From: Minisyncoccota bacterium
Lineage (GTDB): Bacteria > Patescibacteriota > Minisyncoccia > Phycocordibacterales > UBA9973
Direction: 5' to 3'
NCBI GenBank assembly: GCA_021734995.1
Contig: JAIPHX010000006.1
Location: 1 to 51,810 of the forward strand
Length of the DNA: 51,810 bases
This document shows positions 16,097 to 46,676 of the stretch, piece after piece. A program made the position numbers and the translations under genes. Positions within the stretch are counted from its first letter, which is position 1. Each line of letters opens with the position of its first letter. Below the pieces are notes generated by a model. It did not search any database. It worked only from the letters and a program-made list of their open reading frames with translations, and was not told the origin of the DNA.

Positions 16097-16663
16097 ATGA
16101 ATACATCTTTACAAAAGATACGTCTTTATATAAAAACAGTCAGCGCTTTAAAGAAATCAAGGTTTTATTTATCAACTTCTACTGTTGGGGTAAAAAGTGT
16201 TAAACGTAAAGACAAGAAGACACAATTAAAAACTTTCGGTTTTGATGAAGATTTTTTACGTTCTGCCTTAATTGATTTTAGAAAAATTATTTTAAATGGA
16301 GAACCAACAAACTTTTTTGTAATTTGTAATATAATTGAAAAAGGTAGTTTCTCAGATATTTTAAAAAGAAAAGTGCGAACCATAAGAAAAGAATTCTCTG
16401 AAACATTAAATAAGGACGTAACCCTGTATGATCGTCAAACAAACGATAAACCAAAAGACGTTTTAGATAAATGGCTTAATGGAAAATATTTTCATCAAGA
16501 AAAAGATAAACGTCAAAGTATTAATAAAATGAGTTTTATAGTGCATGTCCATAAATTAGTATTTGTTGCCACAGTATTGGATTTAAGTAAAATAGCTGTT
16601 AAATTATCAGATATTCTTGACTTATATCTAAAAAACAATAAAGCACGAGAAAGGTCGCTGTGA
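16097..16663 (+). CDS. Hypothetical protein
   Basis: 188-aa ORF 4 nt after the previous gene; contains WLNGKYFH. Confidence 0.6.
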   Translation: MNTSLQKIRLYIKTVSALKKSRFYLSTSTVGVKSVKRKDKKTQLKTFGFDEDFLRSALIDFRKIILNGEPTNFFVICNIIEKGSFSDILKRKVRTIRKEFSETLNKDVTLYDRQTNDKPKDVLDKWLNGKYFHQEKDKRQSINKMSFIVHVHKLVFVATVLDLSKIAVKLSDILDLYLKNNKARERSL

Positions 16664-16798
16664 TATTATAAAGTTAGTAAACAAGCTTTACGGGGTAATG
16701 AACTATCTGGTTCTATCTGTTAAAGGCTCACTTTTAAGAGCGCGCACGAGAAGCATACAAATCTCCTTGTTTTTTGAGTTTTGTGATAAAATCACTAT

Positions 16799-17488
16799 AT
16801 GGAATTAAAAGATAAAATTATAGTAGTAACTGGTGGAAGTCAGGGTTTTGGTAAAGAACTTGCTAGGTCATTTATAAATAACGGATCTAAGGTTATTATC
16901 TCCAGTCATGGAAAAGAAAGTTTAGAATTAACAGCTAATGAATTATCTACCGATAGTTTTATTGCTGATGTTACTTCCTTTGATGATATTAAAAAACTTG
17001 GTGAATATGTTGTTCAAAAATACGGAAAAATAGATATTTGGATTAATAATGCAGGTATTCAGATTGCTCCAAGTTTAATTGAAGAAGTAGATATTAAAAA
17101 ATTACATCATTTATTCGATGTAAACTTTTTTGGATATTTTTATGGATGTCAGGTTGCGCTTACTCAAATGAAAAAACAAAACAGTGGATTAATAATAAAT
17201 ATTAATTCAACTGCTGGACTTGATGGTAAACCAGAAATATCAGCTTACTCTTCTTCTAAGTTTGCGATTAAGGGGTTAACAGAATCAATCAGGAAAGAGG
17301 TTAAAGATTTTAATATTCAAGTTTATGGAATATTCCCTGGTGGAATGCAAACAGATATTTATAAAGAAAAATACCCAGAGGATATAAAAGAATATATGGA
17401 AATTGATACTGTTGCAGAGAAAGTTATAAATAATTTAAAATCAGATAACCCAGAAATTGATTTTATTATTAAACGACCAGTAAAATAA
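16799..17488 (+). CDS. Short-chain dehydrogenase/reductase
   Basis: TGGSQGFG, NNAG and YSSSK (YxxxK). Confidence 0.95.
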   Translation: MELKDKIIVVTGGSQGFGKELARSFINNGSKVIISSHGKESLELTANELSTDSFIADVTSFDDIKKLGEYVVQKYGKIDIWINNAGIQIAPSLIEEVDIKKLHHLFDVNFFGYFYGCQVALTQMKKQNSGLIININSTAGLDGKPEISAYSSSKFAIKGLTESIRKEVKDFNIQVYGIFPGGMQTDIYKEKYPEDIKEYMEIDTVAEKVINNLKSDNPEIDFIIKRPVK

Positions 17489-17565
17489 TGTTATGGAGAA
17501 ATTCGAGATTAAAAACATAGTTAGCTCACATATTAAAATTTCTTGACCAGCAAGATGCATATAAC

Positions 17566-18039
17566 ATGATAAGAAAACGGGAAGAGAAAGACAATGATGC
17601 AATAATGAGTGTTTGGTGTGAAGCTTCAAATTTGGCACATCCTTTTTTGAGTGCTGATTTTGCAGAGAAAGCAAAAAAAGACATGCGAAATATTTATATT
17701 CCTAATACTGAAACTTGGGTTTTTGAAGATAATAATATTGTTATCGGTTTTATTAGTATGCTTGGGAATGAGATAGGAGGACTTTTTGTGTCACCTGATA
17801 ATCATTTTAAGGGCATTGGAACACAGTTAGTGAATTTTGTTAAAGAATTTAACAGCGAGTTGGAGGTAGAAGTTTTTGAGAAGAATACTATTGGGAGAGC
17901 TTTCTACAAGAAATATGGTTTTACTCTAATTAAACAGTTTCATCATACAGAAAGTGGCAATGATGTATTAAGATTGGGTTTAAAGACAGAAAGAGGTGCA
18001 ACATCGAATGGTCGCGCAAGAAGAGTCGACTTAATATAG
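17566..18039 (+). CDS. GNAT family N-acetyltransferase (YiaC/YjaB-like)
   Basis: GFISML..IGGLFV...KGIGTQLV..N..GRAFYKKYGF. Confidence 0.9.
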   Translation: MIRKREEKDNDAIMSVWCEASNLAHPFLSADFAEKAKKDMRNIYIPNTETWVFEDNNIVIGFISMLGNEIGGLFVSPDNHFKGIGTQLVNFVKEFNSELEVEVFEKNTIGRAFYKKYGFTLIKQFHHTESGNDVLRLGLKTERGATSNGRARRVDLI

Positions 18040-18124
18040 TGAAATTATTAGAAAAAGCATTGCAGAGTAGGGTAATATTACTTCCAATGAAGTGTATTTT
18101 AAATTGTGTCTAAGTTCAGATACA

Positions 18125-18158
18125 TATCACATTCTTTAGAAAACCAAAGAATGTGATA
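18125..18158. repeat. Perfect 13-bp inverted repeat (terminator or operator)
   Basis: tatcacattcttt-N8-aaagaatgtgata, upstream of the NUDIX -10 element. Confidence 0.6.
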
Positions 18159-18186
18159 ACTCAACAAATCTGGTATAATAAACTCC

Positions 18187-18645
18187 ATGCCACACATCAA
18201 TGAAAAAATAGATTTTGCTGTAGAAGTCTTTGTGGTATATAAAAATAAAGTGTTGCTTCGTCTGCATGATAAATATAAGATCTGGCTTAGTGTTGGGGGT
18301 CATGTTGATTTAGACGAAGACCCAAATCAAACTGCTCTACGAGAAGTAAAAGAAGAAGTAGGTTTGGATGTTTCTTTATACGATAAAAATCTGATATTTA
18401 AATATGAAGAAAAAGGGAATAGGCAACTCATTCCACCAATTGCATTAGGAAGACATAATATTTCAGAGATGCATGAGCATGTAGTTTTTATATATTTTGC
18501 TACATCTAATACAGATGAAGTAATTCCAGAAAAAGAAACTGATCAATGGAAATGGGTAGGAATGGAAGAGTTGGATAGTATGGATTTAAGACCTGACATA
18601 GCTTTTTATGCCAAAGAGGCATTAATACGCCTTGGCTCTGCTTGA
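18187..18645 (+). CDS. NUDIX hydrolase
   Basis: GGHVDLDEDPNQTALREVKEEVGL Nudix box. Confidence 0.93.
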   Translation: MPHINEKIDFAVEVFVVYKNKVLLRLHDKYKIWLSVGGHVDLDEDPNQTALREVKEEVGLDVSLYDKNLIFKYEEKGNRQLIPPIALGRHNISEMHEHVVFIYFATSNTDEVIPEKETDQWKWVGMEELDSMDLRPDIAFYAKEALIRLGSA

Positions 18646-18662
18646 TTTATTTCCTTTTGTTT
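18621..18662 (+). repeat. 42-bp direct repeat, copy 1 (3' end of NUDIX gene)
   Basis: attaatacgccttggctctgcttgatttatttccttttgttt; 41/42 identical to 19454-19495. Confidence 0.9.
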
Positions 18663-18771
18663 AGAAAACAAAAAGGTTACGATTATTTCACCACAGTTTA
18701 GCTATTGAGGAGTTTTAAAATAATATAAATTCACAGCCTCGCAATAAATGCTCATATGATATACTTCAAAT

Positions 18772-19419
18772 ATGTATTTTCATGGAGATAGGAATAAAAA
18801 TAATATTGCAATAACTTTTGATGATGGGCCTTCTGAAGAAACTTTAAATGTGCTAGCAGTTTTAAAAAAATATAATATTAAAGCCACTTTTTTTGTTGTG
18901 GGTAAAATGATTAAAAACAGAGAATCTATTATCCAAGCCATAAAAAAAGATGGCCATGAATTTGGTAATCACACTTTTTCACATAAAAGATTGTGGTTTA
19001 AGTCAAAGAAATTTATAGAAGAAGATATTCAAAGATGTGATAATGAACTGAAAAAAGTTGGTGTAGTGACTAATCTTGTTCGTTTCCCTGGGTTAAAATA
19101 TGGACTTAACACTATTAAAATCTGCAAGCTTTTAAATAAAAAGATTATTGCTATAGATTTGATAACTTTGAATCAATTTGCTATGGACTGGTTTAACCCA
19201 TGGCTAAAAAAAATAGGATTAATTAAAAATGAAATCAAAATTGATGATGTTGTAAAAACAACAATAAAAAATACTAAAAACGGTTCAATTTTAGTTTTTC
19301 ATGATTATTTGCAAGAAATAGGTCCACATAAAGAGTTGTCTTCTATTTTAGAAATTATTTTACCAGAATTAAAAAAGAAAGGTTTTAATTTTGTAACTGT
19401 TTCTGAATTGTTAAATTGA
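18772..19419 (+). CDS. Polysaccharide deacetylase (NodB/CE4)
   Basis: TFDDGP, ATFFVVG, HEFGNHTFSH, RFPG and ILVFHD. Confidence 0.93.
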   Translation: MYFHGDRNKNNIAITFDDGPSEETLNVLAVLKKYNIKATFFVVGKMIKNRESIIQAIKKDGHEFGNHTFSHKRLWFKSKKFIEEDIQRCDNELKKVGVVTNLVRFPGLKYGLNTIKICKLLNKKIIAIDLITLNQFAMDWFNPWLKKIGLIKNEIKIDDVVKTTIKNTKNGSILVFHDYLQEIGPHKELSSILEIILPELKKKGFNFVTVSELLN

Positions 19420-19453
19420 ATTGTTTTGAGCTAGGCGTGACAAGTATCCCAAA

Positions 19454-19495
19454 ATTAATACACCTTGGCTCTGCTTGATTTATTTCCTTTTGTTT
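19454..19495 (+). repeat. 42-bp direct repeat, copy 2
   Basis: attaatacaccttggctctgcttgatttatttccttttgttt. Confidence 0.9.
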
Positions 19496-19525
19496 TTCTA
19501 AAAAAAGGCATATAATATATATTAT

Positions 19526-19954
19526 ATGAACAAAAAAGTATATATAGCATTGATAATATGCATTATTTTAGCTTTTGCAGGTTTTTATCTTTTTAATAAT
19601 AAAACACAAAATACTGAGCAAGTAGATAATAATTCAAAAGAAATATCTGCTGATAGTATAAATTCTAATGTTTCTGAAAATAGTAATCCTAGCATTTCTA
19701 CTGATAGTAATGTGTCTAAGACTTTCACTATTGAAGAAGTAGCTACTTACAACACAGAAGCCAATTGTTATTCCGCTATAAATGGCGTAGTGTATGACCT
19801 TACTAAATGGATCAACAAACATCCAGGAGGGGATAGAAATATTCTACGGATTTGTGGGCTAGACGGCTCGGAAACTTTCAATGGTCAACATGGAGAAAGT
19901 AAAAAGGTTGGCAACATATTAGCAGGATTTGAGGTCGGAGTGTTGAGTAATTAG
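19526..19954 (+). CDS. Membrane-anchored cytochrome b5-like heme/steroid-binding protein
   Basis: N-terminal TM; FTIEEVATYN...VYDLT.WINKHPGG...F..QH. Confidence 0.9.
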   Translation: MNKKVYIALIICIILAFAGFYLFNNKTQNTEQVDNNSKEISADSINSNVSENSNPSISTDSNVSKTFTIEEVATYNTEANCYSAINGVVYDLTKWINKHPGGDRNILRICGLDGSETFNGQHGESKKVGNILAGFEVGVLSN

Positions 19955-19977
19955 ATTATAAATAAAATATAAAGATA

Positions 19978-20346
19978 ATGAATGGCATTGAAAATAGTTT
20001 TTTACCAAAAGGAGAAGAAATAGAAATAATGGAGCCAGAAGATTTAGCTATACAGCTTAAATTATTAGAAGAGCAAATTAAGGCTTTAGAAGCACAACTA
20101 AGTTTTGCAGTTGGACAAAAGTACGATGATGTTTCAAAAGAATTAACAGAATTAATTCTTTTGATTAATGAAGTATCTATACAAAGTACTTTTTCAAATA
20201 TTTTAAAGATTTTCCAGGACAAATTGGATGCTATAAATAAACAACTAGCAGATGGTGTTCCTGATGTAATAAAAGATAAGCTAGAAAAAGAACGACAAAT
20301 ATTAGAAGAGCACATAAAGCTTTGGAGCCAAAAAAGACCTTCTTAA
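19978..20346 (+). CDS. Hypothetical coiled-coil protein
   Basis: L/E/K heptad-rich 122-aa ORF in operon-like arrangement. Confidence 0.6.
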   Translation: MNGIENSFLPKGEEIEIMEPEDLAIQLKLLEEQIKALEAQLSFAVGQKYDDVSKELTELILLINEVSIQSTFSNILKIFQDKLDAINKQLADGVPDVIKDKLEKERQILEEHIKLWSQKRPS

Positions 20347-20352
20347 TAACCA

Positions 20353-21369
20353 ATGCAAGCACAAGAATCTTTTTCTCTTTCTAAATTGTTACAAAAGCTA
20401 GCTCCTAAAGTAGGAGCTAAGGTTCTTTTGGAGCCAAAATGGAAAATGGCAGGTCAGATTGTATTTAGAAATAACAGGCATTCTTTTTTTAAATATAATG
20501 TTTTTGGCTTAAATTTGCATGGTTCAGCAAAAATTGCTCGAGATAAAGATAATGCTGATTATTTTATGCGTAAAATGGGCTACAGAGTTGTCAAAAATTC
20601 TAAAGTTTTTTTGTCTGATTCTTGGGCAGATACCATTCAATCAAAAAAAAATAGAATAGATGATGCATATACATATGCTTTAAAAATAGGTTTTCCGGTA
20701 GTAGTAAAGCCCAACGACGCCTCTCATGGGGAGGGAATGTTTTTAGCTCACAACAAAAAAGAATTATATTATGGCTTAAGAGAAGTTTTTAAAATTACAA
20801 AAGTAGCCATTGTGCAGGAGTATATTTTAGGTAAAGATTATAGAGTTGTTGTCCTAGACAATGAAATGGTCTCAGCTTATGAAAGAATTTCTTTAAATAT
20901 TGTTGGAGATGGAAAATCCACTGTCTTAAAATTATTAAAAAATAAATTAAAAAAAATACAAAAAGATGGCAGGAGTGTGAATATAGATGAAAAAGATCCA
21001 AGAATTTTGATGAATCTAAAAAGTTTGTCTTTGTCTTTTGGTTCTGTGTTAGAAAAGAACCAAAAAGTATTTATTTTAAATAATGCCAATCTTTCTGCAG
21101 GTGGAGAATCAGTAGATGTAAGTGATACCATCCATCCATTTTTTAAAGATTTAGCGATAAGACTAACAAAAGATATGGGACTTCGTTTATCTGGAGTAGA
21201 TTTAATTATTGATGGTGATATCTCAAAAAAGACTGATAAGTATTATATATTAGAAATCAATGCTTCTCCTGGGTTAAATCACTATGCTTCTATGGGTCTA
21301 AAGCAAAGAAAGATAGTAGAAGATATGTACTTGAAAATATTACAAAAAATCAGTATTATTAAAGGATGA
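20353..21369 (+). CDS. ATP-grasp protein (cyanophycin synthetase/RimK-like, no Mur domain)
   Basis: ARDKDNA, FPVVVKP..SHGEG, VQEYI.GKDYRV, ANLSAGG, GVDLI and LEINASPG. Confidence 0.85.
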   Translation: MQAQESFSLSKLLQKLAPKVGAKVLLEPKWKMAGQIVFRNNRHSFFKYNVFGLNLHGSAKIARDKDNADYFMRKMGYRVVKNSKVFLSDSWADTIQSKKNRIDDAYTYALKIGFPVVVKPNDASHGEGMFLAHNKKELYYGLREVFKITKVAIVQEYILGKDYRVVVLDNEMVSAYERISLNIVGDGKSTVLKLLKNKLKKIQKDGRSVNIDEKDPRILMNLKSLSLSFGSVLEKNQKVFILNNANLSAGGESVDVSDTIHPFFKDLAIRLTKDMGLRLSGVDLIIDGDISKKTDKYYILEINASPGLNHYASMGLKQRKIVEDMYLKILQKISIIKG

Positions 21370-21782
21370 CAGAGAGAACACCATGTAAATTGGGAGAAAA
21401 GGAAAAATTAATGCTTAGTTTGGAAAAATTTGCTAAGTATTTTGTTTTTTTTAAAGGGCAGGTCGCTTCTTTAAGTTCTGTGCTAAATAGTTCAGTTTTA
21501 GATAAGATAACAAATATTACAAACAATACAGATACTAAAGGTTTTAAAATTGATGGTTTGGTTATTACAATAGAAGAAATTTTAAAAATATACGAAAGCA
21601 GATTGGAAGAATTATCAAAGACTCTATATTATTCAGAAGAAGAAAAGAATAAATCAAATAAACTTTCCATAAAATCCGAAAAGGTTTTTTTAGAGAGTAG
21701 GATTAAAGAAATAAAAAATTTTTTAGAAAAGAATGTAGGTAAAAAAGATGCAGAAAAACAAGATATTACAGGAGTTAAATAA
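21366..21782 (+). CDS. Hypothetical protein
   Basis: 138-aa ORF overlapping both neighbours in operon fashion. Confidence 0.5.
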   Translation: MTERTPCKLGEKEKLMLSLEKFAKYFVFFKGQVASLSSVLNSSVLDKITNITNNTDTKGFKIDGLVITIEEILKIYESRLEELSKTLYYSEEEKNKSNKLSIKSEKVFLESRIKEIKNFLEKNVGKKDAEKQDITGVK

Positions 21783-23079
21783 AAAGTGGCATAAAAAGTG
21801 TGAGTGTGATTTAAAGAAAACTGCGACTAAAGCAGTTTTTGGTTATGGTAATCCAAACGCCGATATTGTGTTTATTGGAGAAGCTCCTGGGAAGAATGAA
21901 GATAATAAGGGGAAACCTTTTGTCGGAGCTTCAGGTAAGATTTTGACAGAAATGCTTTCTATGATAGGTTTAAAGAGGGAAGATGTGTATATTACCAATA
22001 TTGTAAAATATCGTCCACTTGAAAATAGAGATCCGACGCCAAAAGAAAAAGAAGACTGTAAAGAATGGCTTTCCGAAGAGTTGAATGTAATCAATCCAAA
22101 AATGATAGTTTTGTTGGGTCGGCATTCATTGAATACTTTTTTTTCAGAATACAATATTTCAAAAGTGCGGGGGAGAGTTTTCAAAAAAACTTTTCTCAAT
22201 CTAAATACAAAATATTTTTACCCTATATATCATCCAAGTGCTACGATTTACAATCGTTCACTATTGATTGATTTAAAAAAAGATTTTAAAAAGATACCAA
22301 AAATTTTAGAAAAAATAAAAAAAGAAAAAATGAATATTAAAAAGAAAACTCAAATAGTGATTTTGGCAGGTGGACGTGGAAAAAGAATGAAAAGCCATTT
22401 ACCTAAAGCAATTGTTCCTCTCAAAGGTAGACCAATGCTTCATCATCTGGTAGATATATCAGCAAAGATTGGGATACCCAAACCTATAATTATTGTTGGC
22501 CATAAAGCAGAAAAAGTAAAAAAAGAAATTGGTAAAAATAATAATTTTGTTTTGCAAAAAGAATCGCTTGGCACAGCTCATGCCGTACTTTGCGCTAAAC
22601 AAAAATGCAAAACCTACGATACTATTGTAGTTCTTTCTAGTGATCAACCCAATGTAAGGCCTGAAAGTATTTTGGAATCAATCGCTCAACACGATAAATT
22701 AAAATCAAAAATTACTCTTACTACTACACTTGTACCAAATTTTAAAGATTGGCGTCAATATTTTCTGGTTCACGGTAGAATTTTAAGAAAAGGGAATAAT
22801 ATTGTAGGAATTAAAGAATACAAAGATGCCGATGAAATAGAAAGAAAGATAAAAGAAGTAAATACAGGGTGTTGTTATGTTTTTGATGCGAAGTGGCTTT
22901 GGCAAAATTTGAATAAAGTAAAAAACAAAAATGTTCAAAAAGAGTATTATCTTACTGATTTGGTAAAAATAGCTAATGATCAAAAAGAAAAGATTGGTAA
23001 CTACAAGATAGACAATAGAGAAGCTTTGGGGGCAAATTCTAAAGAAGAACTTGAAGTGTTAGAAAAATTTGTTGTATAA
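21748..23079 (+). CDS. Fusion: family-4 uracil-DNA glycosylase + GlmU-like N-terminal nucleotidyltransferase
   Basis: UDG: FIGEAPG..E..G.PFVG, YITNIVKYRP..NR.P and YHPSA. From Met at 22330: VILAGGRGKRMKSHLPK, QKESLGTAHA and YYLTDLV. Confidence 0.85.
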   Translation: MQKNKILQELNKKWHKKCECDLKKTATKAVFGYGNPNADIVFIGEAPGKNEDNKGKPFVGASGKILTEMLSMIGLKREDVYITNIVKYRPLENRDPTPKEKEDCKEWLSEELNVINPKMIVLLGRHSLNTFFSEYNISKVRGRVFKKTFLNLNTKYFYPIYHPSATIYNRSLLIDLKKDFKKIPKILEKIKKEKMNIKKKTQIVILAGGRGKRMKSHLPKAIVPLKGRPMLHHLVDISAKIGIPKPIIIVGHKAEKVKKEIGKNNNFVLQKESLGTAHAVLCAKQKCKTYDTIVVLSSDQPNVRPESILESIAQHDKLKSKITLTTTLVPNFKDWRQYFLVHGRILRKGNNIVGIKEYKDADEIERKIKEVNTGCCYVFDAKWLWQNLNKVKNKNVQKEYYLTDLVKIANDQKEKIGNYKIDNREALGANSKEELEVLEKFVV

Positions 23080-23086
23080 TATATAC

Positions 23087-24316: not shown

Positions 24317-24325
24317 ATTAAAAAT

Positions 24326-24398
24326 GCGCGGTTAGCTCAGTTGGTAGAGCGACCCCTTGACGTGGGGTAGGCCAGGGGTTCGAATCCCTTATCGCGCA
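24326..24398 (+). tRNA. trnV: tRNA-Val (GAC)
   Basis: gcgcggt/atcgcgc acceptor, anticodon arm acccc-ttGACgt-ggggt, T arm agggg-ttcgaat-ccctt. Confidence 0.95.
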
Positions 24399-24495
24399 CT
24401 ATATTAATATCTAACTGTTTCCCTCTAGGTAATAGTATTTTTTATCTAAAAGGGCTTCTACTTTTTTATTGTTTTTTATGATAATATACAGAAAT

Positions 24496-27396: not shown

Positions 27397-27413
27397 AGTA
27401 AAGTAGTATTCAA

Positions 27414-35054: not shown

Positions 35055-35071
35055 AAAATAGATTTAAAGAC

Positions 35072-35205: not shown

Positions 35206-35226
35206 AAATAAATAAAAAACAAAATT

Positions 35227-38679: not shown

Positions 38680-38693
38680 GATATAAATAAAAC

Positions 38694-39989
38694 ATGAGAT
38701 TGATTTTCAAAAAAACATTAGCTTTAGTTTTAAAAGCAGAATCCACCTTAGTACTATCTAAATATAAACCCAAAATAATAGCGATCACTGGATCGGTTGG
38801 GAAAACTTCTACCAAAGATGCGATATATGCTACTTTGGTGGGTACATATCACGTGCGTAAAAGTGAAAAGAGTTACAATAGTGAGCTTGGGCTACCTCTC
38901 ACTATTCTTGGATTACCAAATGGGTGGAATGACCCATTGCTCTGGATTAAAAATATTTTTAAGGGATTGTGGCTTTTTATATGGCCTCATAAATATCCAA
39001 AATGGCTTGTGCTTGAAGTAGGAATCGGCAAACCAGGGGATATGAAGAAAACAGCAGGCTGGCTCAAATCTGATGCTGTGGTGATTACTGCTATTACTGA
39101 GACACCTCCTCATGTTGAGTTTTTTGAATCACGGAAACATCTCATTGAAGAAAAAGCGGGCTTAATAAAAACTTTAAAAAAAGACGGTATTTTAATATTA
39201 AATGCAGACAATAAAGATGTTCTTGATTTAAAAAGTAGAACAAAGAGTAGAGTCTTAACTTTTGGTTTTTCAGAGAAGGCGGATATTAGAGGATCTTCCG
39301 AACAGATTTTCTATAATGAAAAAAATATCCCAACAGGTATAATATTTAGAGTAGATGAAAAAGATAGAAGTGTGCCTGTGGTAGTAGAAGGAGTTTTTGG
39401 TAAAAATCATATCTATGCTTCTTTGATTGCACTCACTGTATCTTCTGGTCTTAAGTTAAATATGATTGAATCCGCTGGAAAACTTAAAAATTACGAAGTT
39501 CCTCCTGGACGCATGCGTTTACTTGAAGGGATTAAAGATTCTTTTATCATAGATGATACTTACAATTCATCTCCATTTGCTTGTGAAAGTGCATTAAATA
39601 CATTAGAGCAAATAAAATCTTCAGGAAGAAAGATTGCTATCTTGGGAGACATGCTTGAACTTGGGAAACACACAGAAGAGTCTCATAAGCAGATAGGGCA
39701 AATAGCTTCTACTTTTGTAGATATGCTAGTAGTAGTAGGCCCAAGAGCAGAACATATCAAAAACGGTGCTTTGGAAAATGGATTTAGTGATGACAAAATA
39801 TTTTCTTTTGCTAACTCTTATGAGGCAGGAGACTTTATTAAAAATGAATTAAAAGAAGGAGATTTTATATTAGTGAAAGGTTCACAAGGGGTACGAATGG
39901 AGAGAATAGTAGGGGAGATTCTCTTAGATCAAGCAAACAAAAGTAAGTTGGTGGTAAGGCAAGATAAAGAATGGTTGGAGAAAAGGTAA
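38694..39989 (+). CDS. murF: UDP-MurNAc-tripeptide--D-Ala-D-Ala ligase
   Basis: ITGSVGKTSTK, YNSELGLPLT, DDTYNSSP, LGDMLELG and VKGSQG. Confidence 0.93.
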   Translation: MRLIFKKTLALVLKAESTLVLSKYKPKIIAITGSVGKTSTKDAIYATLVGTYHVRKSEKSYNSELGLPLTILGLPNGWNDPLLWIKNIFKGLWLFIWPHKYPKWLVLEVGIGKPGDMKKTAGWLKSDAVVITAITETPPHVEFFESRKHLIEEKAGLIKTLKKDGILILNADNKDVLDLKSRTKSRVLTFGFSEKADIRGSSEQIFYNEKNIPTGIIFRVDEKDRSVPVVVEGVFGKNHIYASLIALTVSSGLKLNMIESAGKLKNYEVPPGRMRLLEGIKDSFIIDDTYNSSPFACESALNTLEQIKSSGRKIAILGDMLELGKHTEESHKQIGQIASTFVDMLVVVGPRAEHIKNGALENGFSDDKIFSFANSYEAGDFIKNELKEGDFILVKGSQGVRMERIVGEILLDQANKSKLVVRQDKEWLEKR

Positions 39990-40025
39990 TATTTTTTAAT
40001 TTATTTAATATATATATATATATAA

Positions 40026-40850
40026 ATGAAGATGAAAGAAAACATAGAAACTAAAGAAAAGTTAGAAGGGAATTTTGTAAGTGTTGTTTTTGTACGCCAC
40101 GGAGAAACTACTTATCAAGAGCATGTTACTCCAGATGAAGAAAAAATTATTATTAAAAAGAACGGAACAACCCCAACTGATTTAACAGAAAAAGGTGTTA
40201 AGACAATGGGAAATACTGCGAAACAAATAATAAATACATTGATTGATAAAGAAAGAGATGTGATTGTTTTTTGGGGTTCTCCTGCTTGGCGAGCTCAGGG
40301 TTCAAAGGATATTATTAAAAAGACGTTTGAAGAATCAAAAGTTCAAATTTTGAAAGACAAAGAAATTGATTATTTAAAATATGCTACTCATCATGATAAT
40401 GATTCTATGGTGAAATTTTGGGAAGATGTTAGAATGTTAGGTAAATCAACAGATTTGATCTATGCTTACGATGAAGAACTGCAAAAAAAGACAGATAAAT
40501 TAGAAGTAGCAAGTGAAACACGGAAAAGAGCAGAATCTTTTATAAATTATATTCATCTTGTTATGAAAAAAGTTTCTAAAGGAGATATTAAATTAGAAAA
40601 AAACAAAAGACTTGTATTTTTAAGTGTAAGTCATTTTGAAATCTTAAATCCAATTGTCCAGGACATATTTGGTGTAGACCTAGCATATGGTGATAGAGAT
40701 TTAATTAAAAAGGGAGAAGTTGTGGCACTAGATTTTGTCTATGATGAAAAAACAGATCAAATTAAAATCAATGCTCAATTTCGTGGTATAAAAAAAGAAA
40801 ATATTGTTTTTGATAGAACCAGTAGGAAATTTATTTTGGAGAAGAAATAG
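40026..40850 (+). CDS. Histidine phosphatase superfamily protein
   Basis: FVRHGET motif, SPAWRA and SVSHFE. Confidence 0.8.
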   Translation: MKMKENIETKEKLEGNFVSVVFVRHGETTYQEHVTPDEEKIIIKKNGTTPTDLTEKGVKTMGNTAKQIINTLIDKERDVIVFWGSPAWRAQGSKDIIKKTFEESKVQILKDKEIDYLKYATHHDNDSMVKFWEDVRMLGKSTDLIYAYDEELQKKTDKLEVASETRKRAESFINYIHLVMKKVSKGDIKLEKNKRLVFLSVSHFEILNPIVQDIFGVDLAYGDRDLIKKGEVVALDFVYDEKTDQIKINAQFRGIKKENIVFDRTSRKFILEKK

Positions 40851-40853
40851 TAT

Positions 40854-41531
40854 CTAAAGATGTTTTAAAACTTCTTTAAATATTTTTTTAGTTTCTTCAG
40901 GAGTTAAAGGGATATTTTCTATAGTATCATTTCCTTCAATATCTATTGAATCTGATGGTTTTTTATACACAAAAGATCCTTTTTTTTGAGTATTATATGT
41001 TAAAACAATAGTTGACGCAGGATATGTTGAAGCTTCATAATAGTGTATTTCTCCCATATCACAGGAGTAAAGGTTTCCTTTTTCTCTAATATATTCACCT
41101 ATCTGTATTAATTTACTCTCACTTCCTCCTTTTATTTCTTTACTCTTAGAAGAAAAATCATATTTATATACGTTGTGTACACCTTCAAGATCAGTTTGAA
41201 TTTCTTTAAATCTTAATTCTCTAAATTCCCCAAATAAAGGAATTGATACAAAAGACCATCTATGGTCGTGAACATCAGAAAGAGAAAATTTATCATTTTT
41301 TGGTAAGTTCTCTTTTTCCCAAACATGTAGACGAAGTGTGGCATTGTTAAAATTCTTCAGAATAATTTTAAAAAAATTATTTGGATGACGATAACTTGCC
41401 TCGGATACTCTTTCTAAAAGGTCTTTATTATTAATTATATTCTCTAGTTCATTTCTAATCTTCTCGTAATACTTATTTAGAAATGCACCAGCTTGTTCTT
41501 TGTTTTCAATTCCTAATATTGGTTTTTCCAT
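40854..41531 (-). CDS. Cupin/cysteine-dioxygenase-like protein
   Basis: LRLHVW, VHDHRWSFVS and GEIHY metal-binding-like histidines. Confidence 0.6.
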   Translation of the reverse strand: MEKPILGIENKEQAGAFLNKYYEKIRNELENIINNKDLLERVSEASYRHPNNFFKIILKNFNNATLRLHVWEKENLPKNDKFSLSDVHDHRWSFVSIPLFGEFRELRFKEIQTDLEGVHNVYKYDFSSKSKEIKGGSESKLIQIGEYIREKGNLYSCDMGEIHYYEASTYPASTIVLTYNTQKKGSFVYKKPSDSIDIEGNDTIENIPLTPEETKKIFKEVLKHL

Positions 41532-41570
41532 ATAATTATATTATACAACACTTTTTTTATACATGTCTAT

Positions 41571-42149
41571 CTAACTTTTATGTTTTAAAACTTTGTTCCC
41601 AAAATATCCAGAAATAACGATAGAGTAGTTTAATATAAATATCCATATTGGAAATACTAATAGGGAAAAATTTAGTTCTCCTACTGAAAAGGCACTCAAT
41701 AGCCCGCCGACAGCACACAAAACATAAGCACTCAAAGTTTCAGTATGTGGTTTTTTGTATGTTTTGATTATCGTTGGTAATGCTGCGCATATATCAATTG
41801 CTATGGTAATAAGCAACGCAAGTAATGGTTCTTTTGTGAGATACCAAATAATTAACCCAACACCTGCACCCACAATAGCGAAGATGTCTAATTTAGTAGC
41901 CCCACCTACTCCATATTTTAGAGATAAAATAAAAATTATTATTATAGCTATACAGTCAACCCCAGTAGCCAAAAGAGACCAAGATGCGCCTTCAGCAAGC
42001 TGTGCAAAAAATGCAATCAAAAGTAAAATACTCCAAATAAACCAAGTCATACGTTCTGGCTTAGTTTTTTTAAGTAAAATATCTCTAATATAGGGGATAG
42101 TGGAAGCAGTAATAAAAATTGCAGAGCTGTATCCTAAAATTTCTTGCAT
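41571..42149 (-). CDS. PQ-loop-like multi-TM protein
   Basis: Two repeats: IPYIRDIL..TKPERMTW and LPTIIKTYKKPHTE; about 7 TMs. Confidence 0.65.
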   Translation of the reverse strand: MQEILGYSSAIFITASTIPYIRDILLKKTKPERMTWFIWSILLLIAFFAQLAEGASWSLLATGVDCIAIIIIFILSLKYGVGGATKLDIFAIVGAGVGLIIWYLTKEPLLALLITIAIDICAALPTIIKTYKKPHTETLSAYVLCAVGGLLSAFSVGELNFSLLVFPIWIFILNYSIVISGYFGNKVLKHKS

Positions 42150-42264
42150 TAATATATCATATTATAGCGTAAATAGTTTGTCTATATTTTGTATGCAGTA
42201 TTAGTTTGAGTTTTGATGTTTTCGGTATGGTAAATTAAATAGTAGTGTAATATAATTATTATTC

Positions 42265-42846
42265 ATGACAAGCATTGCTTTAATTTTAACAGTTTTAAGC
42301 TCGTTAATTTTTCTGACATTTTTTGTTCTGTACAACAAAAATATTATAAGTGGTTCTGGTAAACCTAACATTGTTAGTTGGGGATTATTTAGTTTGATTA
42401 CCTTAATCAATGCGATCACTTATATGGCTTTTACCAACGACATACTGAAAGGGGCTTTGGCTTTTACAGACTTCTTTACTTGTATTGTTATAACTTTTTT
42501 AATTCTTTCCAAGGGGCAATATTTCAAATTAAATATTTCAGAAAAAATTATAATTGTTTTAGCTATAATTTCTATTTTGGTATGGTGGGTATTGCACTCC
42601 GCTGTCTATGCAAATTTATTATTACAACCAGCTTATATTTTAGCTTTCATTCCAACTATTAAAAACGCGTGGATAAATCCTAAAAATGAAAGTTCGCTTG
42701 TGTGGTTTATGTGGGCTTTTTCTTTCTTTCTGACAATAGTTGTAATTATTATTCGTTGGGATAATAATTTTGTAGATATTGTAAATTCACTAATAGCTTT
42801 TTCTCTACACTTTACAGTTGGGTTGATTGCTTTGCGTAAAGTTTGA
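42265..42846 (+). CDS. PQ-loop-like multi-TM protein (distant paralogue of 41571..42149)
   Basis: GKPNIVSWGLF and FIPTIKNAWINPKNE; about 7 TMs. Confidence 0.65.
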   Translation: MTSIALILTVLSSLIFLTFFVLYNKNIISGSGKPNIVSWGLFSLITLINAITYMAFTNDILKGALAFTDFFTCIVITFLILSKGQYFKLNISEKIIIVLAIISILVWWVLHSAVYANLLLQPAYILAFIPTIKNAWINPKNESSLVWFMWAFSFFLTIVVIIIRWDNNFVDIVNSLIAFSLHFTVGLIALRKV

Positions 42847-42870
42847 TTTTGGTCTAATTCTTAGAGGTGA

Positions 42871-42919
42871 ATGAATATATATTAACATATTTTAGTATAT
42901 TTTTTATCTATAAACCTGT
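42871..42919. repeat. 49-bp direct repeat, copy 1 (orphan promoter copy)
   Basis: 47/49 identical to 43764-43812. Confidence 0.9.
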
Positions 42920-43000
42920 TTAATGTATTGTATTTTGCACGATAATATAAGTATATATTACTTATTGGGTGGTGGGAGAAAAATAATAACAGACTAAAAA

Positions 43001-43765
43001 TTAATATTCTCTAAACCAAGGTACAGCAGTGACATCTCGTTTTGTCGTGTATAGATAAAGAGTAGGCATATCAGGTAAAAAAGCGTGAGCAGTTGCATCA
43101 GTAAAACTAAAAAGAATTGAGCCGGCAAAGGTTTTTTTTATAAACAAAGCTTCGGTTTTCCTCATTATGTAGTAAACTTTTGCTCCTAAAACTTTATCAC
43201 TACCTTGGAAATGTTTTGTGGCCTGTTTCAGTAATTTTTCTTTTAAAACAGAATCACTCAAATCAAACGAATCAACTTGATTTAAAATAGTTTCTGTCGA
43301 TAACCCCCATTCTTTCCAAAGGTCACTGAGAAGAATTGTCTTTATGCCCACGTTTTCTAGATTTCTCTTAACCAAAGACAGGTATGTTTCAATCTTTTCT
43401 TTTTTATATCTATTCATAAGTGCATGCATATCGGAAAGTATGAATGTAAAAGAAACAACCCCTAAAAGATCTTCTTGGAAGCGAAGCATATTTTTTATTA
43501 GTTGTTCCTCACTATATTCAAATATTTCTTTCTCAGAAGCACCCCAAAACCCCACAAGATTGGTCTTCTTGTTATTTATTATATTATCCTTAACTATCTT
43601 TAACATTCCATGGGAATCATACGGATAATCTCGAGAATATTTTTTTGAGGTCAAGATTTTTAACATCTCTTCTCCTTTTTTTAAGCCGATTTTTTTAATT
43701 AAATCTTCCCCAGAGTTATCTTGATTTTTGATATCATTTAAAATTTTGTTAAAATTGTCATCCAT
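43001..43765 (-). CDS. Hypothetical protein, possible truncated class Ic aaRS-like Rossmann fold
   Basis: LVGFWGAS and FTFILSDMHALMN resemble TyrRS/TrpRS strands; no HIGH or KMSKS motif; ends in PWF. Confidence 0.55.
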   Translation of the reverse strand: MDDNFNKILNDIKNQDNSGEDLIKKIGLKKGEEMLKILTSKKYSRDYPYDSHGMLKIVKDNIINNKKTNLVGFWGASEKEIFEYSEEQLIKNMLRFQEDLLGVVSFTFILSDMHALMNRYKKEKIETYLSLVKRNLENVGIKTILLSDLWKEWGLSTETILNQVDSFDLSDSVLKEKLLKQATKHFQGSDKVLGAKVYYIMRKTEALFIKKTFAGSILFSFTDATAHAFLPDMPTLYLYTTKRDVTAVPWFREY

Positions 43766-43812
43766 GAATATATATTAACATATCTTAGTATATTTTTTAT
43801 CTATAAACTTGT
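43764..43812. repeat. 49-bp direct repeat, copy 2 (promoter of 43001..43765)
   Basis: atgaatatatattaacatatcttagtatattttttatctataaacttgt; overlaps the start codon of the minus-strand gene. Confidence 0.9.
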
Positions 43813-43940
43813 ATTGGATCTCTTGGGTTGCTTTAAGATACATTTATAAAATAAGGCTTAAAAATCTGTGATTCTTCAGCTAATCAAGATTCCTCGTGCC
43901 ACTCCTAGAAGACCTGATTAAACTATGTTATCATTTAAAT

Positions 43941-44936
43941 ATGAAATTGGAAGTAATAAAGGAAGACCCTTTTAATATATTAAGCACTACAAGAGGTGTT
44001 CTAGAAAATGCACAGTATGTGTCTATTGATGAAAACAAGATTAATGATGATATTTCAAATAAAATATCAGAGAGATTTAAAAAGGGGATATATGATGAAT
44101 ATGAATTAGGTATTAATCTAACTGATAAATTAGAAGATAATTTACAAATAATTTTTATTGAAAATTCAGTTAATTTTTGTTTTTGGCCAACTAAAGGAGA
44201 ACCCAAATGGGAAGTTGAATGGCCGATTGGAGGAAAGATTTTTGGGGGATGGTTTGGTCTGGTAAACTGTTTTAAAAGAGCGATGGAAGAAAACATTCCA
44301 ATTTTAGATCCAAAATATTTAAGCAGTATTACATTAGAAGACGCTCGTAAAATCTTTCGAGGTAAAAATAATATAGATATACCTTTACTTGAAAAACGAG
44401 TAGAAAATTTAAGAGAAGTGGGAAATATTTTACAAGAAAAATTTGACGGTAAAATCATTAATTTATTGAAAGAAAGTAATTTTGATGCAATTAAAATAGT
44501 AAAAAGTATTTTAGAAAATTTTCCTTGTTATAAAGACGTTTCAATTTTAGATAATAAGAAAGTTGTCTTTTTGAAACGTGCACAAATTTGTGCCAATGAT
44601 TTTTCTTATGTTTTAAAAAATAGTGAAAATAAAATAACTAGTTTAGATAAATTAACCGCATATGCTGATTACAAATTACCACAATTATTGAGAATGTCTG
44701 GAGTAATTAATTATGAGGAATCTTTGGCAAATAAAATTGATACATTAACAGAATTAGCTCATGATAGTAGAGAAGAAATAGAAATTCGTTCTGCAACAAT
44801 ATGGGCTGTGGAATTACTAAGACAACGCATTGGTATTCTTTCCTCTGGAGAAATTGATAATACAATATGGTTGTTAAGTCAGGGAATTCAAAAGGAATCA
44901 AAACCATATCATCGTTCGAGAACAATTTTTTATTAA
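43941..44936 (+). CDS. Queuosine salvage protein (Q_salvage/DUF2419, QNG1-like glycosylase)
   Basis: NFCFWP..KW, KRAQI, LTAYADYKLPQLLR..GVI.Y, EIEIRSATIWAVE and D..IW. ATG 43941 is preferred. Confidence 0.88.
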   Translation: MKLEVIKEDPFNILSTTRGVLENAQYVSIDENKINDDISNKISERFKKGIYDEYELGINLTDKLEDNLQIIFIENSVNFCFWPTKGEPKWEVEWPIGGKIFGGWFGLVNCFKRAMEENIPILDPKYLSSITLEDARKIFRGKNNIDIPLLEKRVENLREVGNILQEKFDGKIINLLKESNFDAIKIVKSILENFPCYKDVSILDNKKVVFLKRAQICANDFSYVLKNSENKITSLDKLTAYADYKLPQLLRMSGVINYEESLANKIDTLTELAHDSREEIEIRSATIWAVELLRQRIGILSSGEIDNTIWLLSQGIQKESKPYHRSRTIFY

Positions 44937-44945
44937 ATGTTAGTT

Positions 44946-45044
44946 CGATTCCTAAAAGGGTGTTGATTTTCACAAACGAAAAAAGCCTTAAAATTAAGGC
45001 TTCTCGTGCTAGCACGTGATGGTGACCTTTCCAGGAATCTAACC
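44946..45044 (-). repeat. Degenerate copy of tRNA-Glu(CTC) 3' end plus downstream flank (att-like)
   Basis: aaaagccttaaaattaaggcttctcgtgctagcacgtgatggtgacc..ggaatctaacc matches about 46604-46702, including the acceptor and T arm. Confidence 0.85.
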
Positions 45045-45084
45045 TTCTCGTGCTAGCTCTAGAAGGGTGCTCTTATTAGGGGTC

Positions 45085-45113
45085 TTGTAACTTAGCAATA
45101 TCTGAATTATAAT
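45085..45113 (+). promoter_or_regulatory. Sigma70 promoter of trp leader
   Basis: TTGTAA 45085-45090, 17-nt spacer, TATAAT 45108-45113; ATG 6 nt later. Confidence 0.8.
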
Positions 45114-45119
45114 AAAAAT

Positions 45120-45179
45120 ATGTTAAGAAAAAGCAATTATATCAATATAGCATGGTGGACAGCTCACATAAGTGGGTAG
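45120..45179 (+). CDS. trpL: trp leader peptide MLRKSNYINIAWWTAHISG
   Basis: Tandem TGG TGG at 45153-45158, upstream of trpB. Confidence 0.88.
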   Translation: MLRKSNYINIAWWTAHISG

Positions 45180-45244
45180 TCTTTGTTGTATTTATAATTA
45201 TTTTTAAGTAATACATGACAACCCACATAATTGTGGGCTTTTTT
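45158..45244 (+). promoter_or_regulatory. trp attenuator
   Basis: seg1 gacagctcac 45158-45167; seg2 gtgggtagtc 45172-45181; seg3 gacaacccac 45217-45226; terminator cccaca-taat-tgtggg followed by T6. Confidence 0.88.
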
Positions 45245-45365
45245 ATTTTCTAATTAAACCTATATGAATAAATTTATTTTTAAACAACATTGTACTGAAT
45301 TCTGGCGTAATTAAGAAACGTTTAGTTTTTACATTACTATTTTAAAAAATAAAAATATAAATTAT

Positions 45366-46571
45366 ATGAAAACAGAAATAAAATCATTAAAAAATTTACC
45401 AGATGAAAATGGGTATTACGGAAAATTTGGAGGAAGTTTTATTCCTCCTCAATTAGTGGAACCATTAAAAGAAATAGAACGAGAATATTTAAAAGCGAAA
45501 AATGATCCAGAATTTCAAAAAGAATATGCTGATTTACTAAAGAATTATGTTGGCCGTCCTTCACCACTTTATTTTGCAAAAAATATAACAGAAAAATTAG
45601 GTGGAGCAAAAGTATATTTAAAACGTGAAGATTTAAACCATACTGGCGCCCATAAAATAAATCACTGTCTAGGGGAAGTACTTCTTGCTAAAAGAATGGG
45701 GAAGAAAAAGGTTTTAGCTGAAACTGGAGCAGGGCAACATGGAGTTGCTTTGGCTACAGCTGCAGCCTTACTTGGTCTTGAGTGTGAAATTCATATGGGT
45801 TCTATTGATATAGAAAAACAACAACCAAATGTTATTCGTATGAAATTACTCGGAGCAAAAGTTGTAGAAGTTAATACAGGGGGTAAATGTCTTAAGGATG
45901 CAGTGGATAGTGCTTTTGCAACATTTATAGAAGAATACAAGACTACATTTTTTGCAATTGGTTCTGTAGTGGGACCTCATCCATATCCGATGATAGTGAG
46001 AGATTTTCAATCTATTGTAGGGAAAGAAGCCAAAAAACAAATATTGGAACAAGAAAAAAGATTACCAGATTATATAATCGGTTGTGTTGGTGGTGGATCA
46101 AATGCGATTGGATTATTTAATGAATTTCTTGATGATGAAGTTAGCCTTATCGGAGTGGAGCCAGCAGGCAGGGGTTCAGGTATTGGTGAACATGCTGCTA
46201 CTATTACATATGGAACAGAGGGTGTAATACATGGTATGAAGACTATTGTATTGCAAGATGAAAAAGGAGAGCCAAATAGTGTTCACTCTATTGCATCAGG
46301 GTTAGATTATCCTGGTGTTGGACCTATTCATGCTTACCTCAAAGCTATTGGAAGAGTCGAATATACTTATGCAAGTGATGATGAAACGATAAAAGCATTT
46401 TTGGAATTATCTAAGGTTGAGGGAATTATTCCAGCTCTTGAAAGTGCTCATGCAGTAGCGTATGCGTTGAAACTAGCTTCAACTCTAAGTAAAGATAAAA
46501 TCATAATAGTTAATCTTTCTGGTCGTGGAGATAAAGATATTGATTATGTAGCTTCATTATTAAAAATATAA
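45366..46571 (+). CDS. trpB: Tryptophan synthase beta chain (stand-alone in window)
   Basis: [10 protein letters not shown] (PLP Lys), [30 protein letters not shown] and NLSGRGDKD. Confidence 0.98.
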
Positions 46572-46676
46572 TAATTCTATCAAATAATAAAATTGAATAA
46601 GTTTGATTCTCATAAGGGTGCTAATTTTTACACACACAAAAAGCCTTAAAATAAGGCTTCTCGTGCTAGCACTTGA

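Follow-up and report, generated by a model that had tools for sequence, protein, structure and literature searches.

M boxes and pseudo-tRNA arms at the tRNA-Glu cassette arrays of a Minisyncoccota genome, and their link to one clade of large serine recombinases

Introduction

Several described systems accumulate acquired genes at a single docking site. The staphylococcal cassette chromosome (SCC and SCCmec) composite islands consist of tandem cassettes at the 3′ end of rlmH and employ the large serine recombinases (LSRs) CcrAB and CcrC; serine integrases at large have become widely used genome-engineering tools. The ssrA-specific islands of Dehalococcoides, the subject of work by McMurdie and colleagues in 2011, are reportedly tandem islands delimited by several direct repeats of the ssrA 3′ end in a streamlined genome. 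Tycheposons of Prochlorococcus form tRNA islands by serial integration, with a minority using large serine recombinases (bioRxiv 10.1101/2020.12.28.424599). Here we analyze a 51,810-nt stretch of DNA from a Minisyncoccota bacterium (the window, contig C4 of a 789-kb, 97%-complete genome of 10 contigs and 33% G+C), in which a short motif, the M box, recurs in small arrays of gene cassettes behind both tRNA-Glu(UUC) and tRNA-Glu(CUC).

Members of the Candidate Phyla Radiation (CPR, or Patescibacteria) have tiny genomes with few recognised mobile elements, and their acquisition of accessory genes is poorly understood. The M box provides a sequence handle on such events, either as a tRNA end followed by N6 and GCTAGCACGAG, or as an M box joined to a pseudo-tRNA. 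This handle yields base-exact cassette boundaries in metagenome-assembled genomes (MAGs) and a catalogue of cargo, and the elements that it marks explain contig breaks. In our reading, small integrative elements and cassettes at tRNA 3′ ends in Paceibacteria probably carry the M box as a constant component of each arm, and recombinases of one clade, that of LSR1, would move the cassettes in trans. Our literature search found no paper on CPR cassettes of this kind or on the M box.

The M box follows tRNA genes across the genus

The motif was recognized as the 9-mer GCACGAGAA, which the original prediction took for a short recombination or core site marking stepwise gene accretion at tRNA-Glu loci. 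The window contains five exact copies, at 16643-16651 and 16744-16752 on the plus strand and at 45001-45009, 45045-45053 and 46658-46666 on the minus strand, as well as the variant GCACGAGGA at 43891-43899 (minus strand) and a perfect match between the 13-bp sequences (TAAAATAAGGCTT) at 43847-43859 and 46647-46659. Each copy lies on the sense strand of the adjoining tRNA-Glu, and all of these observations agree with the original description. Dinucleotide shuffles give a mean chance expectation of 0.08 copies per window, and at least five copies were reached in 0 of 100 shuffles; the motif is thus non-random in the window. Its reported placement at or between gene ends needs one correction, in that the copy at 16643 runs into the final codons of the open reading frame (ORF) at 16097-16663. 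The window has no copies beyond those listed, and the rest of the genome carries one more, within a coding region at C6:120375; genome-wide, the reversed control pattern gives two matches. In 40 relatives, GCACGAGAA counts were near those of the reversed control and hence uninformative. Because a 9-mer is too short for this purpose, the search was moved to the 11-mer GCTAGCACGAG and to longer modules. GCACGAGAA is in fact the core of longer repeats, namely a 103-nt direct repeat and a 90-nt module of M box and pseudo-tRNA, and forms the invariant core of an M box of roughly 14-20 bp with the consensus GCTAGCACGAG-RNG, i.e. GC[TA]GCACGAG-R-N-G.

Across 212 genomes of the genus, GCTAGCACGAG has 58 matches in 41 genomes, compared with about 22 for the reversed control. 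Thirty loci were inspected, and in 23 of them the distance from the 3′ end of a tRNA to the start of the box is 6-8 nt, the tRNA being either intact or present as a decayed remnant that reads ..GGnTCACCA-N6-box. That the box is exact while the tRNA remnants are decayed indicates that it is under constraint or frequently renewed. The intact tRNAs that precede it are Glu-UUC, Glu-CUC, Trp, four Ser isoacceptors, Asn and Gln, and the proposed tie to tRNA-Glu therefore proved too narrow; within the same genome as the window, GCTAGCACGAG also stands behind tRNA-Trp (contig C1, 21901-21891).

A fixed distance from the tRNA 3′ end, often with a terminator hairpin next, is what one would expect of a host trailer element with a role in 3′ processing, termination or as an operator, whose extra copies would go back to local duplication of a segment comprising tRNA-Glu and its trailer. 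We consider this extremely improbable, since the box follows only 3 of the 35 tRNAs in its own genome and is present in only 41 of the 212 genomes. Orthologous tRNA-Glu(CUC) genes without adjacent M-type cassettes have no box (G005, G012, G055), while near-identical trailers stand behind different tRNAs in different species, alongside the same LSR. Further copies occur at the head of a pseudo-tRNA module with no tRNA-like sequence upstream, and a conserved RNA fold is lacking (see below).

Conserved arms and a junction grammar

The pattern GTTCTATCTGNTNAANGCTCAC, which describes a 90-93-nt module of M box and pseudo-tRNA-Glu, has 13 matches in 11 genomes of the genus, and its exact version has 38 matches in 36 GTDB contig stretches. 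Three of these 38 are chance matches, in non-Patescibacteria records where the remainder of the module is absent. Some 33 of the others, all from Patescibacteria (labelled Nomurabacteria, Paceibacterota, Parcubacteria or Kaiserbacteria), show the M box about 70 nt upstream. In total, about 35 GTDB species representatives possess the module, and its cargo is different in each case. Nearly all true matches share a 90-92-nt layout of (C)GCACGAGAAGGGTCG, a variable centre, ACCTTACnGGGCAAnGAATC and GGTTCTATCTGCTGAACGCTCAC. The module aligns over its full length with real tRNA-Glu, with the box directly 5′ of tRNA position 1, and neither flank is related from one copy to the next. A tRNA-Glu, where one is visible, is located 0.7-3.4 kb upstream of the module in the same orientation, and the M box or a close variant is found 6-8 nt past its 3′ end in 16 of 17 loci with a downstream distal arm (15 with the long module, the window UUC locus and the short-arm locus L168). 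Identical module 22-mers occur in different species and at both UUC and CUC loci, which argues that the pseudo-tRNA travels with a mobile unit rather than being a host copy that decays on its own. Genes carried beside other modules include HD, Schlafen-like helicase, HEPN-like, nucleotidyltransferase-like and EgtD-type methyltransferase genes. At L129/L130 (G177:C12, ~109900-111100), two module-bounded cassettes form an array with an EgtD-type methyltransferase gene in one and then a QueD-like gene, suggesting that queuosine-related cargo recurs in such arrays.

At gathering score, Rfam recognises only four tRNAs in the window, and the pseudo-tRNA goes unrecognised even at E <= 10. A structured RNA or folded-DNA (attC-like) module was considered and rejected, as RNAalifold on 19 aligned modules returned -0.55 kcal/mol and three pairs with no covariation. 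Given no conserved fold and no Rfam match, we read the module as a DNA-level site. A promoter reading of the box (TTGACA in the spacer, TGnTATACT in the module) was also set aside, as the copies display no consistent -10/-35 geometry, a comparison to which no statistics were applied.

The CUC cassettes of the window possess a shorter type of arm, in which a vestigial tRNA end, CTTCTAGA and the box are joined to the T-loop. This arm recurs at L168, in an unrelated Paceibacterota MAG, where 27 nt across the junction (CCCTTCTAGAGCTAGCACGAGAAGGTT) are identical. L168 also shares the terminator and the AGCACCCTT..GAATC block, but its cargo differs (a 671-aa phosphoenolpyruvate-utilising-type gene), and the stretch from the T-loop to ..CAC, 22 nt long, is perfectly repeated in direct orientation on either side of the cassette. 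A GTDB scan for the short junction GCACGAGRAGGTTNGATTCC produced ten matches, of which L168 is the sole true homolog; the other nine come from taxa outside Patescibacteria and are probably due to chance. At L177, a long module is followed by CTTCTAGA plus box and preceded by GTGTCACTTTTGTCACTTTTT, a sequence otherwise found upstream of an LSR1-clade recombinase gene.

Direct repeats of 22-103 nt flank the cassettes, and the displaced fragment of L168 is identical to the resident tRNA end, as would be the case if one-gene circles or fragments with a tRNA 3′ end and trailer were integrated by homologous (Campbell-type) recombination, with the M box merely a conserved part of the trailer. Such an origin is very unlikely, because the identity between the long pseudo-tRNA arm and the resident tRNA at the junction is limited to about 4 nt (TCAC), far below what RecA-type recombination needs. 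Moreover, the arms are conserved across species and different tRNAs while their cargo is unrelated, and the box co-varies with one LSR clade. Homology-driven integration thus fits the data poorly, as does a host tRNA-processing role.

Cassette junctions obey a simple grammar. The first junction reads tRNA-N6-M, internal junctions read M-pseudo-tRNA-N6-M (window 16642-16763 and 45071-45000, the G138 tRNA-Ser array, and G177), and at the last junction M-pseudo-tRNA is followed by a trailer without M (G002, G189, and window 43841-43911). Two-armed elements inserting serially at a tRNA end would generate this order, and the grammar supports the part of the original prediction in which the motif marks boundaries of horizontally acquired modules that accreted stepwise at both tRNA-Glu loci. 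As that prediction also required, gene content breaks at the motif. The UUC locus of G002 has three genes unrelated to the window cargo; homology between the two genomes stops about 12 nt past the proximal box and restarts precisely where the distal box begins, at GCAC[G/A]AGAA. In G189, the variable segment of the CUC locus lies between two boxes.

The tRNA-Glu(CUC) site is an insertion hotspot, where arms are conserved while cargo varies. Its conserved flanks are the gene at 47457-48509 on one side and a core operon ending at 39989 on the other. From tRNA to core gene, the segment measures 215 bp in G005, which is empty and has no box, 2.1 kb in G189, where two boxes bound it, 2.3 kb in G123, 3.3 kb in G055, 6.7 kb in this genome, 7.4 kb in G109 and 7.8 kb in G012. 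The comparison of empty with filled sites therefore bears out an acquisition of differing content at this position.

If the box itself were the recombination core (M x M, in the manner of lox or dif), one-box circles would be exchanged by a tyrosine (Xer-like) or small serine recombinase, and cargo would be swapped on a fixed platform of tRNA-N6-M-pseudo-tRNA. Several features suit this view. Two directly oriented boxes flank every cassette, and homology with G002 restarts precisely with the distal box. The centre of the box, GCTAGC, is a palindrome between a variable left and a conserved right arm, and some copies are 16-22-bp palindromes (CTCGTGCTAGCACGAG in G138 and G178; CTTCTAGAGCTAGCACGAGAAG at 45065-45044) that recall 11-6-11 dif-type sites, and the block GCTAGCACGAGA is cleanly missing from the oldest junctions. 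However, the pseudo-tRNA to the right of the distal box is conserved, down to the 22-mers shared across species and loci, and only the sequence beyond it differs, so that the mobile unit reaches beyond the box to ..CAC. None of 47 loci presents an empty platform, in which tRNA-N6-M is directly followed by the pseudo-tRNA. The boxes that flank one cassette can differ (GCTCGAG versus GCACGAG; GCGCTCGAG versus GCACGAG in L137 and L158), and in L137 and L158 this affects the putative overlap. The genome has a single, unlinked tyrosine recombinase, and 171 of the 212 genomes lack the box. We therefore regard M x M exchange as unlikely. In this respect the original prediction of a recombination or core site probably needs revision: the box lies inside both arms, and the element boundaries map to the 3′ part of the tRNA (T-loop to ..CAC) on both sides.

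The box is linked to one clade of large serine recombinases

Neither tRNA-Glu array of the window contains a serine or tyrosine recombinase. The original prediction had proposed a search for a tyrosine recombinase elsewhere. There is one such gene (PF00589, Xer-like; C6:134948-135541), on a different contig from both arrays, and the enzyme linked to the box is instead an LSR. LSR1, one of four serine recombinases in the genome, is a 440-aa protein (C1:19560-20882) with a Resolvase-type and a Recombinase domain and the catalytic YARKSTESEERQ..SIDSQ. It sits in a 2.5-kb element at tRNA-Trp (C1:19403-21907), with M boxes inside both ends. This element reads tRNA-Trp - TTGACA - GCTAGCACGAGATGTGTTGTC, then ORF299, LSR1 reading toward the tRNA, GTGTCACTTTTGTCACTTTTTAGTTC-GCACGAGGAGCGTTGTT, and a 91-nt pseudo-tRNA module ending CTCCGCA; the genes downstream of it are themselves accessory. 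The same proximal arm, TTGACAGCTAGCACGAGATGTGTTGT, stands behind tRNA-Trp here and behind tRNA-Ser(UGA) in G122, by a 95%-identical LSR, and homology on the distal side of the two elements stops right after ..CCGCA. Together, the common proximal arm and the end of distal homology place the boxes inside the element, whose ends map to the 3′ end of the tRNA.

Relatives of LSR1 are encoded in 120 of the 212 genomes, and the box is linked to one clade of them only. Among four homologs from other genomes with at least 84% identity, three have a box 141-142 nt upstream of the LSR start and the fourth has one at 1077 nt, while upstream of the LSR1 homologs at or below 81% identity it was found in 0 of 25, with other repeated motifs there instead. 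The other LSR paralogs of the genome (C8:21096-22412, C8:~79970 and C6:~36123) also have no upstream M box. An LSR1-like gene (62% identity) is present in the Glu-type element L165. Fragments resembling the LSR1 C-terminus occur at C6:24825-25055 (64% identity) and C2:159-326 (43%) and are probably remnants of decayed elements.

In G022, tRNA-Glu is occupied by an LSR of a different family, which has no box in its own arms, and the displaced old trailer reads ..AGGTCACCA-tttcgt-GCTAGCACGAGAAG. The island (L039, G022:C1:192500-207000) comprises 12 kb at tRNA-Glu(UUC). The ORF of its serine recombinase (574 aa) extends in antisense orientation into the tRNA, such that the last ~20 codons are tRNA-encoded. 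The island also carries three Por_Secre_tail surface proteins, of which one has a CHAP domain, as well as an opposite-strand tRNA fragment. A DUF5677 gene follows the displaced trailer.

The two tRNA-Glu arrays of the window

Docking site 1 is an intact tRNA-Glu(UUC) at 15308-15382 on the plus strand, with an encoded CCA (ARAGORN; Rfam RF00005, 61.7 bits). All further features of this locus are on the same strand. The proximal arm (P′) of the resident cassette (15383-15402) consists of the spacer TCAACA and a decayed M box, GCTATCACAAATAG (15389-15402), and is homologous to the G002 trailer TCAACAGCTAGCACGAGTAGCATACAAAAA. Next is a replacement trailer with a terminator hairpin (CCTCCTTTCGGAG plus a T run; 15403-15433), apparently brought by the cassette, and then the cargo, two ORFs of 214 and 188 aa (15448-16663) with no significant Pfam family. 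The distal arm (P) at 16642-16731 is an M box, AGCACGAGAAAGG, fused to a full-length pseudo-tRNA-Glu (16652-16731) ending GGCTCAC. Over its entire length, it can be aligned with 12 further modules and with real tRNA-Glu, and its 22-mer GTTCTATCTGTTAAAGGCTCAC is identical in G045. Beyond the arm, a displaced older trailer (16732-16763), made up of a 12-nt spacer, the M box GCACGAGAAG and CATACAAATC, has counterparts among the trailers of tRNA-Glu(UUC) in G071, G126 and G002 (GCACGAG-AAGCATACAAA); it is either the proximal arm of an earlier insertion or a pre-existing trailer. The UUC locus holds one cassette in front of an apparently older, M-bearing trailer.

Docking site 2, an intact tRNA-Glu(CUC) with an encoded CCA (ARAGORN, Rfam), lies at 46677-46751 on the minus strand. 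Reading outward on that strand, the proximal arm of the trpB cassette (46641-46676) is composed of TCAAGT, the M box GCTAGCACGAGAAG (46670-46657) and the terminator hairpin AAGCCTTATTTTAAGGCTT, the same arm as in L168. A conserved block, AGCACCCTTATGAGAATCAAAC (46601-46622), which appears to be a remnant derived from the pseudo-tRNA, is repeated at 44943-44964 and occurs in L168 and L177. The apparently younger cargo (45085-46571, plus strand) is a lone trpB-like pyridoxal phosphate enzyme (PF00291, 3.1e-41) behind a Trp-leader-like attenuator. The distal arm of this cassette (45044-45071) joins the vestigial tRNA end AGCACC, CTTCTAGA and the M box GCTAGCACGAGAAG (box at 45057-45044) to a displaced 3′ fragment of tRNA-Glu(CUC), T-loop to CCA (45020-45044; 21 of 25 positions identical to the intact gene). 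The proximal arm of the second cassette then follows at 44983-45019, with TCACGT, an M box (45013-45000) and a terminator hairpin; its cargo, apparently the older, is a queuosine-salvage protein (DUF2419/Q_salvage; PF10343, 1.9e-74) at 43941-44936 on the plus strand. In a three-way alignment, the distal arm of the Q-salvage cassette (43867-43911, minus strand) resolves into CTTCTAGGAGTG, the variant M box GCACGAGGA (43900-43890) and a decayed tRNA 3′ fragment (43867-43889). Last comes what is probably the ancestral tRNA trailer, without an M box, and a terminator remnant (43841-43866, minus strand), in which the box block GCTAGCACGAGA present in the two younger copies is absent.

This array contains the 103-nt direct repeat, whose copies at 44942-45044 and 46600-46701 are 81-84% identical and comprise the final 25 tRNA nucleotides, the TCAAGT spacer, GCTAGCACGAGAAG, the terminator hairpin and the block AGCACCCTT..GAATC.AAC; a third, decayed copy is found at 43841-43911. 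Both cargo genes are single and on the opposite strand to the repeats, and each tRNA fragment is preceded by a box. From this order, at least two insertions appear to have occurred at the CUC site, Q-salvage first and trpB second.

The trpB leader (45085-45365, plus strand) contains UGG-UGG and a terminator and is weakly matched by the Rfam Trp_leader family (RF00513, E = 0.084); the trpB genes of G068, G072 and G055 have the conserved leader upstream as well. The trpB-like gene is present in 5 of 60 other sampled genomes of the genus, in four of them within about 0.6 kb of tRNA-Glu in two arrangements, both unlike that of the window; in the fifth, G076, the 4-kb trpB locus contains no tRNA-Glu. 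Within the older part of the variable region (39990-43840) there are no M boxes. A promoter-like sequence of about 46 nt (GTTTATAGATAAAAAATATACTAA.ATATGTTAATATATATTCAT) is duplicated on the minus strand at 43763-43808 and 42868-42915, one copy preceding the gene at 43001-43765 and the other lying ~0.9 kb further on, which suggests that this region may hold more self-promoted units.

Other tRNA-Glu-linked sequences were noted in passing. A GC-rich element of about 60 nt (GTGAAGGC..hairpin..GAGCCGGGGTCGCGA.CACTTA) stands behind tRNA-Glu in many relatives that have no M box (L002, L009, L011, L017, L030, L043 and L143). Three contigs of G016 (C30, C42 and C54; L031-L033) start or end within the tRNA-Glu 3′ end or M-box trailer, which indicates that the repeats break MAG assemblies at such arrays. 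In other families of the order, 5′ fragments of tRNA-Glu precede the intact gene by about 150-200 nt (G027:C2:139742-139787, G027:C1:70380-70414 and G037:C21:30380-30418) and represent a different type of tRNA-linked scar.

A proposed mechanism for cassette integration

How could such junctions arise? In its free, joined form, an element would run from an M box through a pseudo-tRNA (about 76 nt, or the T-arm and acceptor part only) and, across the join, to CA, a 6-nt spacer, an M box and a replacement terminator. Strand exchange would take place in the last ~25 nt of the tRNA gene, with an LSR as the putative catalyst and the M box as a putative protein-binding site. The tRNA would keep a functional 3′ end and gain the proximal arm (CA, spacer, M box and terminator), while the distal arm (M box and pseudo-tRNA) would land beside the old trailer. 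Repeated insertion at one tRNA would shift older cassettes outward, giving rise to tRNA-N6-M ... M-pseudo-tRNA-N6-M ... M-pseudo-tRNA-native trailer. In the window, tRNA-Glu(CUC) would have been naive when the Q-salvage cassette entered it, with the trpB cassette arriving later, whereas the UUC cassette would have entered a tRNA with an already box-bearing trailer. The window cassettes, being recombinase-less, would most likely be mobilised in trans by LSR1-clade enzymes.

A number of observations weigh against this mechanism. Both tRNA-Glu arrays of the window are without a recombinase, and the M boxes of each element form a direct repeat, not an inverted one. Across six reconstructed junctions, no significant dyad symmetry was found between the M-box half and the T-arm half (permutation p = 0.05-0.76). 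Canonical serine integrases do not reuse attL-type sites, as serial insertion would require. In the long module, about 90 nt separate the distal M box from the presumed crossover, more than a simple half-site would allow. In the short arm of the CUC type, the sequence of the displaced fragment follows that of the host tRNA (the 22-nt perfect repeat of L168) and the box abuts the repeated tRNA segment; the crossover could then be the T-loop beside the box, or integration could be homology-driven. Separately, the M box was considered as an inverted mimic of the T-arm on account of shared TTCT..TGCT words, and this candidate was dropped when permutation tests were not significant.

A more far-reaching possibility, which we put forward only tentatively and do not favor at present, is that the M box plus tRNA-like segment is the recognition signature of one LSR clade that captures, stacks and re-mobilises recombinase-less single-gene cassettes behind several tRNAs. 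This would be a functional analogue of the integron in CPR bacteria, with a ~113-bp two-box site unlike any described serine-integrase site. Were an LSR to use such a tRNA-mimicking, two-box site and mobilise cassettes in trans, it would constitute a new serine-integrase architecture, and an integron-like gene-capture system made of different parts.

Comparison with known systems

Judged as tRNA islands in the Islander sense, both loci pair an intact tRNA with displaced 3′ fragments in the same direction (46677-46751 with 45020-45044 and 43867-43889; 15308-15382 with 16652-16731), and the insert is missing at the orthologous site of a relative (G005). An integrase inside the island is absent from the window arrays and present in the C1 tRNA-Trp element and in L165. 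Likewise, a protein with Resolvase and Recombinase domains lies within the bounded element in the C1 element and in its 84-95% identical homologs, but not in the window cassettes. Measured against a serine-integrase att site, which spans ~40-50 bp with imperfect dyad symmetry around a central dinucleotide, the sites differ, with direct-repeat boxes and the non-significant symmetry given above.

The closest resemblance is to Islander-type and tycheposon islands. As in these, the tRNA is inserted into and restored, displaced partial tRNAs lie at the boundaries, newcomers push older units outward, degenerate remnants persist, and the cargo is metabolic or defensive. Unlike tycheposon islands, window-type units are mostly single-gene and recombinase-less, and their hosts are CPR bacteria. 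Their distal arm is a conserved, element-borne pseudo-tRNA and not only a host remnant, and a short box in both arms is common to elements that target different tRNAs.

With SCC and SCCmec islands, these arrays have in common that short direct repeats bound tandem cassettes, that many units are recombinase-less and, in our reading of the present arrays, moved in trans by an LSR, and that junctions are reused. They differ in targeting a tRNA instead of rlmH and in having arms with a tRNA mimic and a double M box, and the comparison of the recombinase with Ccr extends to the family level. The Dehalococcoides ssrA islands reportedly share repeats of the 3′ end of a tRNA-like gene but differ in carrying serine recombinases and large rdh cargo, and in having no described double-box or pseudo-tRNA arm.

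Xer-based modules, such as the pdif modules of Acinetobacter plasmids and the integrative mobile elements exploiting Xer (IMEX), also have short sites flanking modules, with one arm conserved, the other variable, and a 6-bp palindromic centre. By the standard of a 28-bp, 11-6-11 Xer/dif site, the M box has a GCTAGC centre and a conserved right arm, while its left arm is usually unrelated, and the box is palindromic only in some copies. In contrast to the Xer modules, it shows no likeness to dif consensus arms, its sites are direct and not alternating, and it is tied to tRNA ends and to an LSR clade.

To integrons the likeness is one of layout only, in that mostly single-gene, recombinase-less cassettes are lined up at one docking site with a repeated element between the genes. 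No IntI lies by an attI and Pc promoter, as the sole PF00589 gene of the genome is on another contig, and the repeats have neither a conserved hairpin nor, on reading them, an RYYYAAC...GTTRRRY pair as in attC. Cargo stands in either orientation, in some cases with its own leader or attenuator, as in the trpB cassette. What these loci add to the described systems is a shared box, its presence in both arms, an element-borne pseudo-tRNA-Glu module, and the link of the box to one clade of large serine recombinases.

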